From Escherichia coli (GTDB taxonomy: Bacteria; Pseudomonadota; Gammaproteobacteria; Enterobacterales; Enterobacteriaceae), in assembly GCF_003334385.1 (NCBI RefSeq), contig NZ_QOWN01000033.1: 48,307 nt of DNA; one strand, given 5' to 3'. Under the pieces are notes generated by a model, which ran no database searches, was not told the DNA's origin, and was given only the letters and a program-made list of their open reading frames with translations. Below, in pieces: positions 26,173 to 28,470 of this stretch. The position numbers and the translations under genes were made by a program. How positions within the stretch are numbered: position 1 is the stretch's first letter; each line of letters starts with the position of its first letter.

Positions 26173-28470
26173 ATGACGAATCGTATCTCTCGCCTCAAAA
26201 CTGCACTGTTTGCCAATACCCGTGAAATCTCGCTGGAGCGGGCGCTGCTTTATACCGCCAGCCATCGGCAAACCGAAGGCGAACCGGTGATATTGCGCCG
26301 GGCGAAAGCAACAGCGTATATCCTTGAACATGTTGAAATTTCGATTCGTGATGAAGAACTGATTGCCGGTAACCGCACCGTAAAACCGCGCGCCGGGATT
26401 ATGTCGCCGGAAATGGACCCTTACTGGCTGCTGAAAGAGCTGGATCAATTCCCGACGCGTCCGCAGGACCGCTTTGCTATCAGCGAAGAAGATAAACGTA
26501 TCTACCGTGAAGAGTTGTTCCCGTACTGGGAAAAACGTTCGATGAAAGATTTCATCAACGGGCAGATGACAGATGAAGTAAAAGCCGCGACCAACACGCA
26601 GATTTTCAGCATCAACCAGACGGATAAAGGCCAGGGGCACATTATTATTGATTACCCACGCCTGTTGAATCACGGGCTGGGTGAGCTGGTGGCACAGATG
26701 CAGCAACATTGTCAGCAACAGCCGGAGAATCACTTTTATCAGGCCGCGTTGTTACTGCTGGAAGCCTCGCAGAAACACATTTTGCGTTACGCCGAACTGG
26801 CGGAAACGATGGCGGCAAACTGCACAGATGCCCAGCGTCGCGAAGAGCTGCTGACTATTGCAGAGATCTCCCGCCATAACGCGCAACATAAGCCGCAGAC
26901 GTTCTGGCAGGCGTGCCAGTTATTCTGGTACATGAACATCATTCTGCAATACGAATCCAACGCCAGTTCGCTATCGTTGGGGCGCTTCGACCAGTATATG
27001 TTGCCGTTCTATCAGACATCATTAACCCAGGGCGAAGATGCGGCGTTCCTGAAAGAACTGCTCGAATCTTTATGGGTGAAATGCAACGACATCGTGCTGT
27101 TGCGCTCCACCAGTAGCGCGCGTTATTTCGCCGGTTTCCCGACCGGCTATACCGCACTGCTCGGCGGGTTAACCGAGAACGGACGTAGCGCGGTGAACGT
27201 GCTTTCGTTCCTTTGCCTTGACGCCTATCAAAGCGTGCAATTACCGCAACCGAACCTCGGCGTGCGCACTAACGCCTTGATCGACACGCCGTTCCTGATG
27301 AAAACCGCCGAAACCATTCGCTTCGGCACCGGTATTCCGCAAATCTTTAACGATGAAGTGGTGGTGCCAGCGTTCCTCAACCGTGGCGTTTCGCTGGAAG
27401 ATGCGCGCGACTATTCCGTAGTGGGCTGTGTGGAATTATCTATTCCCGGCAGAACCTACGGCTTGCATGACATCGCGATGTTTAATCTGCTGAAAGTGAT
27501 GGAAATCTGCCTGCATGAAAATGAAGGCAATGCTGCGCTGACTTATGAAGGTTTACTGGAGCAGATCCGCGCCAAGATCAGCCACTACATCACCCTGATG
27601 GTTGAGGGCAGCAATATTTGTGATATCGGCCATCGCGACTGGGCACCTGTACCGCTGCTCTCATCGTTTATCAGCGATTGTCTGGAAAAAGGCCGCGATA
27701 TTACCGATGGCGGCGCGCGTTATAACTTCTCCGGCGTACAGGGGATCGGTATCGCCAACCTGAGCGATTCTCTCCATGCGTTGAAAGGGATGGTTTTTGA
27801 GCAACAGCGTTTAAGTTTTGACGAATTGCTGTCGGTATTAAAAGCCAACTTCGCAACGCCAGAAGGCGAAAAAGTCCGCGCTCGCTTAATTAACCGCTTC
27901 GAGAAATACGGTAACGATATCGACGAGGTGGATAACATCAGCGCCGAACTGTTGCGCCACTACTGCAAAGAAGTGGAAAAATACCAGAACCCGCGCGGCG
28001 GCTACTTCACGCCGGGATCGTATACCGTTTCTGCTCACGTCCCGTTGGGATCGGTGGTTGGCGCGACGCCAGACGGTCGTTTTGCCGGAGAACAGCTGGC
28101 AGACGGCGGCTTGTCACCCATGCTGGGCCAGGACGCACAAGGGCCAACAGCGGTACTGAAGTCAGTCAGTAAGCTCGATAACACGCTGCTGTCTAACGGT
28201 ACGTTGCTGAACGTGAAATTCACTCCGGCGACCCTGGAAGGTGAAGCAGGATTACGCAAACTGGCCGACTTCTTACGGGCGTTTACCCAGCTTAAGTTAC
28301 AACATATTCAGTTTAACGTGGTGAACGCCGACACGTTGCGGGAAGCGCAACAGCGCCCACAAGATTATGCCGGGCTGGTGGTGCGCGTTGCCGGATACAG
28401 CGCCTTCTTTGTCGAACTGTCGAAGGAGATCCAGGATGACATCATCCGCCGGACAGCGCATCAGCTGTAA
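26173..28470 (+). CDS. pflD: PFL-like glycyl radical enzyme PflD (765 aa); substrate not established
   Basis: Full-length ORF with glycyl-radical motif RVAGYSA near the C-terminus (Gly741) and active-site GCVE (Cys419). Confidence 0.95.
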   Translation: MTNRISRLKTALFANTREISLERALLYTASHRQTEGEPVILRRAKATAYILEHVEISIRDEELIAGNRTVKPRAGIMSPEMDPYWLLKELDQFPTRPQDRFAISEEDKRIYREELFPYWEKRSMKDFINGQMTDEVKAATNTQIFSINQTDKGQGHIIIDYPRLLNHGLGELVAQMQQHCQQQPENHFYQAALLLLEASQKHILRYAELAETMAANCTDAQRREELLTIAEISRHNAQHKPQTFWQACQLFWYMNIILQYESNASSLSLGRFDQYMLPFYQTSLTQGEDAAFLKELLESLWVKCNDIVLLRSTSSARYFAGFPTGYTALLGGLTENGRSAVNVLSFLCLDAYQSVQLPQPNLGVRTNALIDTPFLMKTAETIRFGTGIPQIFNDEVVVPAFLNRGVSLEDARDYSVVGCVELSIPGRTYGLHDIAMFNLLKVMEICLHENEGNAALTYEGLLEQIRAKISHYITLMVEGSNICDIGHRDWAPVPLLSSFISDCLEKGRDITDGGARYNFSGVQGIGIANLSDSLHALKGMVFEQQRLSFDELLSVLKANFATPEGEKVRARLINRFEKYGNDIDEVDNISAELLRHYCKEVEKYQNPRGGYFTPGSYTVSAHVPLGSVVGATPDGRFAGEQLADGGLSPMLGQDAQGPTAVLKSVSKLDNTLLSNGTLLNVKFTPATLEGEAGLRKLADFLRAFTQLKLQHIQFNVVNADTLREAQQRPQDYAGLVVRVAGYSAFFVELSKEIQDDIIRRTAHQL

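Follow-up and report, generated by a model that had tools for sequence, protein, structure and literature searches.

What reaction the product of pflD catalyses is the question raised by this locus, which lies in a 48,307-nucleotide stretch of Escherichia coli DNA analysed here as a whole (the window). The gene carries a pyruvate formate-lyase (PFL) name. Among the E. coli matches listed and at the locus of strain 300709, its RefSeq product is "formate C-acetyltransferase", with PflC as the activating enzyme. A preliminary description of the sequence had held that the pfl name is probably a misnomer and that the enzyme more likely eliminates or dehydrates than cleaves a 2-keto acid.

The pflD coding sequence occupies 26173-28470 on the plus strand and encodes 765 amino acids, as identified by the open reading frame list, the match to PDB 8yjo, Pfam and TIGR01774. 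Translation and alignments place the Cys-loop motif G418-C419-V420-E421 at 27424-27435 (+), with the codon of C419 at 27427-27429 and that of E421 at 27433-27435; the surrounding 27406-27450 translates to RDYSVVGCVELSIPG. The glycyl-radical motif RVAGYSA is intact at 28384-28404 (+) and contains the G741 codon at 28393-28395. Both motifs lie exactly where the preliminary description had put them. The whole 765-residue protein has 10 cysteines with no two neighbouring, and a search for a CC dipeptide across it finds none.

PflD is a member of the glycyl radical enzyme superfamily, having a PFL-like barrel and a C-terminal RVxG[FWY] domain. Pfam assigns the PFL-like domain PF02901 to residues 1-626 (701 bits, E = 2.6e-210) and the Gly_radical domain PF01228 to residues 645-747 (107 bits, E = 1.2e-30). 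A cognate radical-SAM activase is encoded immediately downstream by pflC (28436-29314, +; 292 amino acids), whose first 35 nt lie within the end of pflD. PflC is recognised by its annotation, by the general activase model TIGR02494 (262 bits, above the cut-off of 174) and by its Cys motifs, CPHLCPWC (CX3CX2C, residues 47-54) and a second cluster, CLHCAKC (residues 73-79).

Among the solved structures, PDB 8yjo, "Probable dehydratase PflD", is the same protein from the same locus, 100% identical over residues 1-765. A close homologue deposited as formate C-acetyltransferase (8id0) scores 1058 bits against PflD. The B12-independent glycerol dehydratase 1r8w matches over the full length with 654 bits, the glycyl radical protein 9rco with 604, the diol dehydratase 5i2a with 600, the 776-residue "PFL2" chain 2f3o (pyruvate formate-lyase 2) with 526 and YbiW (8id7, 8yjn) with 480. 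The true PFL 1h16 has only 117 bits, and choline TMA-lyase, hydroxyproline dehydratase and isethionate lyase rank between YbiW and it.

Residues were aligned for the five best PDB matches, and glycerol dehydratase residue numbers were obtained by counting along the PDB alignment. C433, E435, H164 and G763 of glycerol dehydratase (1r8w), which we take to be its published catalytic residues, align with C419, E421, H156 and G741 of PflD. PflD thus has the same Cys/Glu/His/Gly set as the B12-independent glycerol dehydratase of Clostridium butyricum (1r8w, 1r9d). In addition, H446-D447 of the latter stand opposite H432-D433 of PflD. The His156 codon, CAC, is at 26638-26640 (+), as located by the alignment with His164 of glycerol dehydratase and Arg177 of PflB (literature Arg176).

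The sequence at the Cys loop is GCVE also in 8id0, 9rco and 5i2a. PflD has both residue features of the eliminase clade, the single Cys followed by Glu two residues on (GC[VI]E) and the His that matches H164, which has been proposed to protonate the leaving group. The choline TMA-lyase CutC likewise has a C-x-E pattern. The preliminary description had taken this pattern as typical of dehydratase or lyase-type glycyl radical enzymes, with glycerol dehydratase and the choline TMA-lyase class as examples, and the alignments with 1r8w and 5i2a bear it out for the dehydratases. By analogy, C419 would be the thiyl-radical cysteine and E421 the general base, and the glycerol dehydratase literature suggests a catalytic role for His156.

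The neighbourhood of pflD fits a sugar pathway. With gene names and order from the RefSeq annotation of the strain 300709 locus, and all the listed genes being intact open reading frames in the window, the order is gldA, fsa (fsaB) and ptsP (ptsA) on the minus strand, frwC, frwB, pflD, pflC and frwD on the plus strand, and then yijO and eptC, again on the minus strand. The 6.5 kb from 24000 to 30500 is identical to that of strain 300709 and is present with 95-100% identity in every one of the 5426 complete genomes of E. coli that the collection contains. Elsewhere, the window has features that are ordinary for this region of the E. coli chromosome, such as OxyS, a cobalamin riboswitch aptamer, the ClpQY promoter element and the L31 leader.

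Three of the neighbours are phosphotransferase system (PTS) components in the same direction as pflD. These are frwC for EIIC (24708-25787, +), frwB for EIIB (25802-26122, +) and frwD for a second EIIB-like protein (29316-29657, +), and the role assigned to FrwC in the pathway, anhydro-sugar uptake and phosphorylation, follows a 2025 review (PMC12441222). Divergent from the frw operon is ptsA (RefSeq ptsP; 21898-24399, -) for an 833-residue multidomain PTS phosphotransferase. It is accompanied by fsaB for fructose-6-phosphate aldolase 2 (21224-21886, -) and gldA for glycerol/L-1,2-propanediol dehydrogenase (20110-21213, -). All of these were assigned from annotation and open reading frames, as was yijO for an AraC-family protein (29644-30495, -), which is convergent with frwD and is a candidate regulator of the frw/pflD locus.

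A reaction has been published for PflD. As cited in the review (PMC12441222), Ma et al. (JACS 2024 146:26187-26197) found that PflD cleaves 1,5-anhydromannitol-6-phosphate (1,5-AM6P) and YbiW cleaves 1,5-anhydroglucitol-6-phosphate (1,5-AG6P), both to 1-deoxyfructose-6-phosphate. The review also states that a PTS phosphorylates 1,5-anhydroglucitol and 1,5-anhydromannitol before the cleavage and that both cleavages are glycyl-radical-dependent and strictly anaerobic. Our substrate assignment for PflD is based on this secondary citation. The flanking PTS genes frwCBD and ptsA, fsaB and gldA fit the 1,5-anhydromannitol pathway.

With high confidence, we consider PflD to be not a PFL but a glycyl radical enzyme of the eliminase type that belongs to the PFL2/glycerol-dehydratase clade and opens the ring of 1,5-anhydro-D-mannitol-6-phosphate by C-O cleavage to give 1-deoxy-D-fructose-6-phosphate. 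In the pathway, the Frw PTS and PtsA would import and 6-phosphorylate the sugar, FsaB would cut the PflD product into hydroxyacetone and glyceraldehyde-3-phosphate, and GldA would turn hydroxyacetone into 1,2-propanediol. In the 2024 work, FsaA and FsaB reportedly split 1-deoxyfructose-6-phosphate into these same two products and GldA is said to reduce hydroxyacetone to 1,2-propanediol. Substrate complexes of both PflD and YbiW were reportedly crystallised there, and PDB entries 8yjo for PflD and 8yjn and 8id7 for YbiW are consistent with this.

The chemistry that PflD would share with B12-independent glycerol dehydratase is radical β-elimination, in which an oxygen leaving group sits beside a hydroxyl-bearing radical carbon. 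By analogy with diol dehydratases, PflD would work as follows. The activase PflC would put the radical on Gly741, from which it would move to Cys419. The Cys419 thiyl radical would take a hydrogen from substrate C2, and Glu421 would remove the proton of the C2 hydroxyl to leave a ketyl radical. The ring oxygen O5 would then depart from C1 by β-elimination, probably protonated by His156, and the C1 radical would regain a hydrogen from Cys419 to yield CH3-C(=O)-. Such a mechanism would be a spin-centre-shift elimination of the diol-dehydratase type with an ether oxygen leaving.

The hydrogen abstraction is placed at C2 because the substrates of PflD and YbiW differ only in the C2 configuration and give the same 2-keto product. 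Both this site and the parts played by E421 as base and H156 as acid are suggested by analogy with diol dehydratases. YbiW resembles PflD in several respects: the identity is 39%, RVAGYSA is present (G786 of YbiW in the column of G741), a His (H165) stands at the H156 position and the Cys loop is GCIE (G440-C441-I442-E443) in the same place as GCVE. Its locus is also alike, with the activase gene ybiY and the fructose-6-phosphate aldolase gene fsaA adjoining. However, YbiW is longer by 45 residues, and PTS genes are not immediately adjacent to it. It acts on the glucitol compound, which is epimeric at C2 with the mannitol substrate of PflD, and its product is the same as that of PflD, according to the review (PMC12441222).

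The assigned substrate may be neither the sole nor the main physiological one. The module of the Frw PTS, PflD, FsaB and GldA, possibly under YijO control, could handle further anhydro- or deoxy-sugar phosphates from the diet or the host. We regard this as improbable, and if true, the 2024 assignment would be a part of the PflD role only.

The dehydratase label of UniProt and PDB would be literally correct if PflD were a true small-diol dehydratase acting on glycerol or 1,2-propanediol. The Cys/Glu/His set common with 1r8w, the aligned H432-D433 and the strong matches of 654 (1r8w) and 600 bits (5i2a) speak for it. However, pflD lies in a PTS operon beside a fructose-6-phosphate aldolase gene, a setting indicative of a phosphorylated hexose-like substrate, and its paralogue YbiW likewise adjoins such an aldolase. 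Except for gldA, no propanediol or glycerol utilisation genes are adjacent to pflD in the annotated neighbourhood. The assignment of 1,5-AM6P, a substrate cleaved with no net loss of water, in the review (PMC12441222) is also against it, and we find a small-diol dehydratase very unlikely.

The leaving group makes the difference between the two enzymes. In glycerol dehydratase a free hydroxyl leaves, so that a C3 diol is dehydrated overall. In PflD a phosphorylated C6 anhydro-sugar gives up its ring ether oxygen at C1, and the net reaction is an isomerisation by ring-opening ether cleavage, not a dehydration. Since no water is lost, "eliminates" is correct and "dehydrates" is not strictly so. 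Of the two activities proposed in the preliminary description, elimination thus holds, with C-O cleavage in place of 2-keto-acid cleavage, and dehydration does not strictly hold. Both names, "pfl" and "dehydratase", are imprecise for PflD.

To compare PflD with true PFLs, PflB and TdcE as well as YbiW were taken from E. coli K-12 and aligned with it, and the columns were converted to residue numbers. The PflB numbers are of the precursor; the literature leaves out Met1 and counts the two PflB cysteines as C418 and C419. Opposite G418-C419-V420-E421 of PflD are C419-C420-V421-S422 of PflB and C423-C424-V425-S426 of TdcE. Since the columns match GCVE in 1r8w, 8id0, 9rco and 5i2a, GCIE in YbiW and CCVS in PflB and TdcE, the GCVE of PflD is part of the homologous Cys loop and not a chance 4-mer.

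Of the two PFL cysteines, the first is the one attacking pyruvate and the second accepts the radical from the glycine. PflD keeps only the second, literature C419 of PflB being C419 of PflD, and has G418 at the position of the first. The alignment with characterised glycyl radical enzymes, which the preliminary description had proposed as a check, finds no Cys-Cys pair at the catalytic position, as that description had claimed. Moreover, R177 and R436 of PflB (literature R176 and R435), which bind pyruvate in the PFL-pyruvate structures, are replaced by H156 and M436 in PflD. Neither the two adjacent catalytic cysteines nor the pyruvate-binding arginines of true PFL are found in PflD.

The common ground of PflD with PflB and TdcE (PDB 1h16, 2pfl) is the fold family of the ten-stranded PFL-like barrel and the glycyl radical domain with RVxGY, where G735 of PflB (precursor numbering) is in the column of G741. 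The sequences of PflD and PflB are 24% identical. PflB carries out C-C cleavage via an acyl-enzyme intermediate.

Membership in the curated families was decided by the cut-offs of the NCBIfam release of June 2026. PflD passes TIGR01774 for the PFL2/glycerol dehydratase subfamily over its full length, with 1356 bits against 678.2. It fails TIGR01255, the equivalog for true PFL (EC 2.3.1.54), with 121.9 bits against 994.2, and that match is confined to the C-terminal residues 575-764. The model that names PflD, NF007437, was built on PflD itself as an equivalog of 765 positions and is still labelled "formate C-acetyltransferase".

The gene and RefSeq product names would make PflD a genuine formate-lyase for pyruvate or 2-ketobutyrate. 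This reading draws on the label, shared by RefSeq/PGAP and NCBIfam NF007437, and on the PFL-like fold with the glycyl radical domain. The label on PflD is inherited and is not experimental evidence. The Gly in place of the first Cys, the loss of both arginines, the 122 bits where TIGR01255 calls for 994, the low identity to PflB and the different activity published (PMC12441222) all oppose it. The Cys loop, the arginines, TIGR01255 and the published activity effectively refute PflD as a true PFL, and we give this reading next to no credence. The failure at TIGR01255, the passing of TIGR01774 and the radical C-O cleavage cited in the review (PMC12441222) make the pfl name a misnomer, as had been suspected.

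Hardly any chance is left for another eliminase, be it a choline TMA-lyase, a hydroxyproline dehydratase or a sulfopropanediol/isethionate lyase, which would have the fold and the Cys loop in common with PflD and scores of 511-579 bits in its favour, but these are far under the equivalog cut-offs of 1000-1100 bits (CutC 511 against 1050, HypD 526 against 1100, HpfG 579 against 1000 and HpsG 515 against 1000, all failed) and the annotated neighbourhood of pflD has no choline, hydroxyproline or sulfonate genes.

The Cys-Cys versus Cys-x-Glu distinction among glycyl radical enzymes is long established, and PFL2-type enzymes have long been recognised as having no Cys-Cys. That PflD is an eliminase under a misnomer is also known already, with PDB 8yjo deposited and the function published in 2024. 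The remaining issue is one of annotation, as RefSeq, NCBIfam and the equation of pflD with EC 2.3.1.54 persist.

Metagenomic studies also apply the name "pflD" generically to EC 2.3.1.54. A 2026 paper in Microbiome, for one, interprets a phage-borne "pflD" as producing acetyl-CoA and formate. Looking for Cys-Cys or Gly-Cys-x-Glu at the Cys loop is a cheap sequence test and would guard against such over-interpretation.

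The product names of PflD, PflC and YbiW contradict both the names used in the PDB and the biochemistry that Ma et al. published in 2024. Over pflD-pflC (window 26173-29314), RefSeq/PGAP still calls PflD 'formate C-acetyltransferase' and PflC '[formate-C-acetyltransferase]-activating enzyme', both names stemming from the equivalog models NF007437 and NF007483 (NCBIfam, June 2026 release), and the K-12 record lists ybiW as 'putative pyruvate formate lyase'. In metagenomics, a phage-encoded 'pflD' has been read as EC 2.3.1.54, yielding acetyl-CoA and formate (a 2026 paper, PMC13069815). 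That assignment may be right or wrong, depending on whether the Cys loop of the phage protein reads CC (true pyruvate formate-lyase) or GCxE (the eliminase type).

As annotated, pflC starts within pflD in a different frame and shares the last 35 nt of that gene (28436-28470), which suggests that the two genes are translationally coupled. There is also a longer mechanical ORF, with its start at 28367. Downstream, frwD (+) and the AraC-family gene yijO (−), which encodes a candidate regulator of the frw-pfl operon, converge, and their 3′ ends share 14 nt (29644-29657).

The window matches strain 300709 near-perfectly as far as the ppc-argE interval, and the register is lost beyond it (window about 35620 onward versus about 19625 onward in the matching locus of that strain). 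This loss implies an indel at the position of a 'hypothetical protein' that the annotation of strain 300709 puts between ppc and argE.

Rfam matches at gathering score place in the window the ClpQY promoter element (4463-4520, −), the L31 ribosomal protein leader (9132-9184, +), the OxyS sRNA (40217-40326, −), the cobalamin riboswitch aptamer (45316-45505, +) and, marginally at 39.6 bits versus 37.6, the ES036 (CssrF) sRNA (10164-10205, +). All five are expected for this E. coli region.

In E. coli K-12, the paralogous pair ybiW-ybiY is directly adjoined by fsaA (5175-9305 of the extracted ybiW locus; NC_000913.3 860174-864304), in the same layout as fsaB next to pflD-pflC. Both F6P aldolase paralogues of E. 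coli thus have a GCxE-type glycyl radical enzyme as partner, and each of the two such enzymes goes with a different aldolase.
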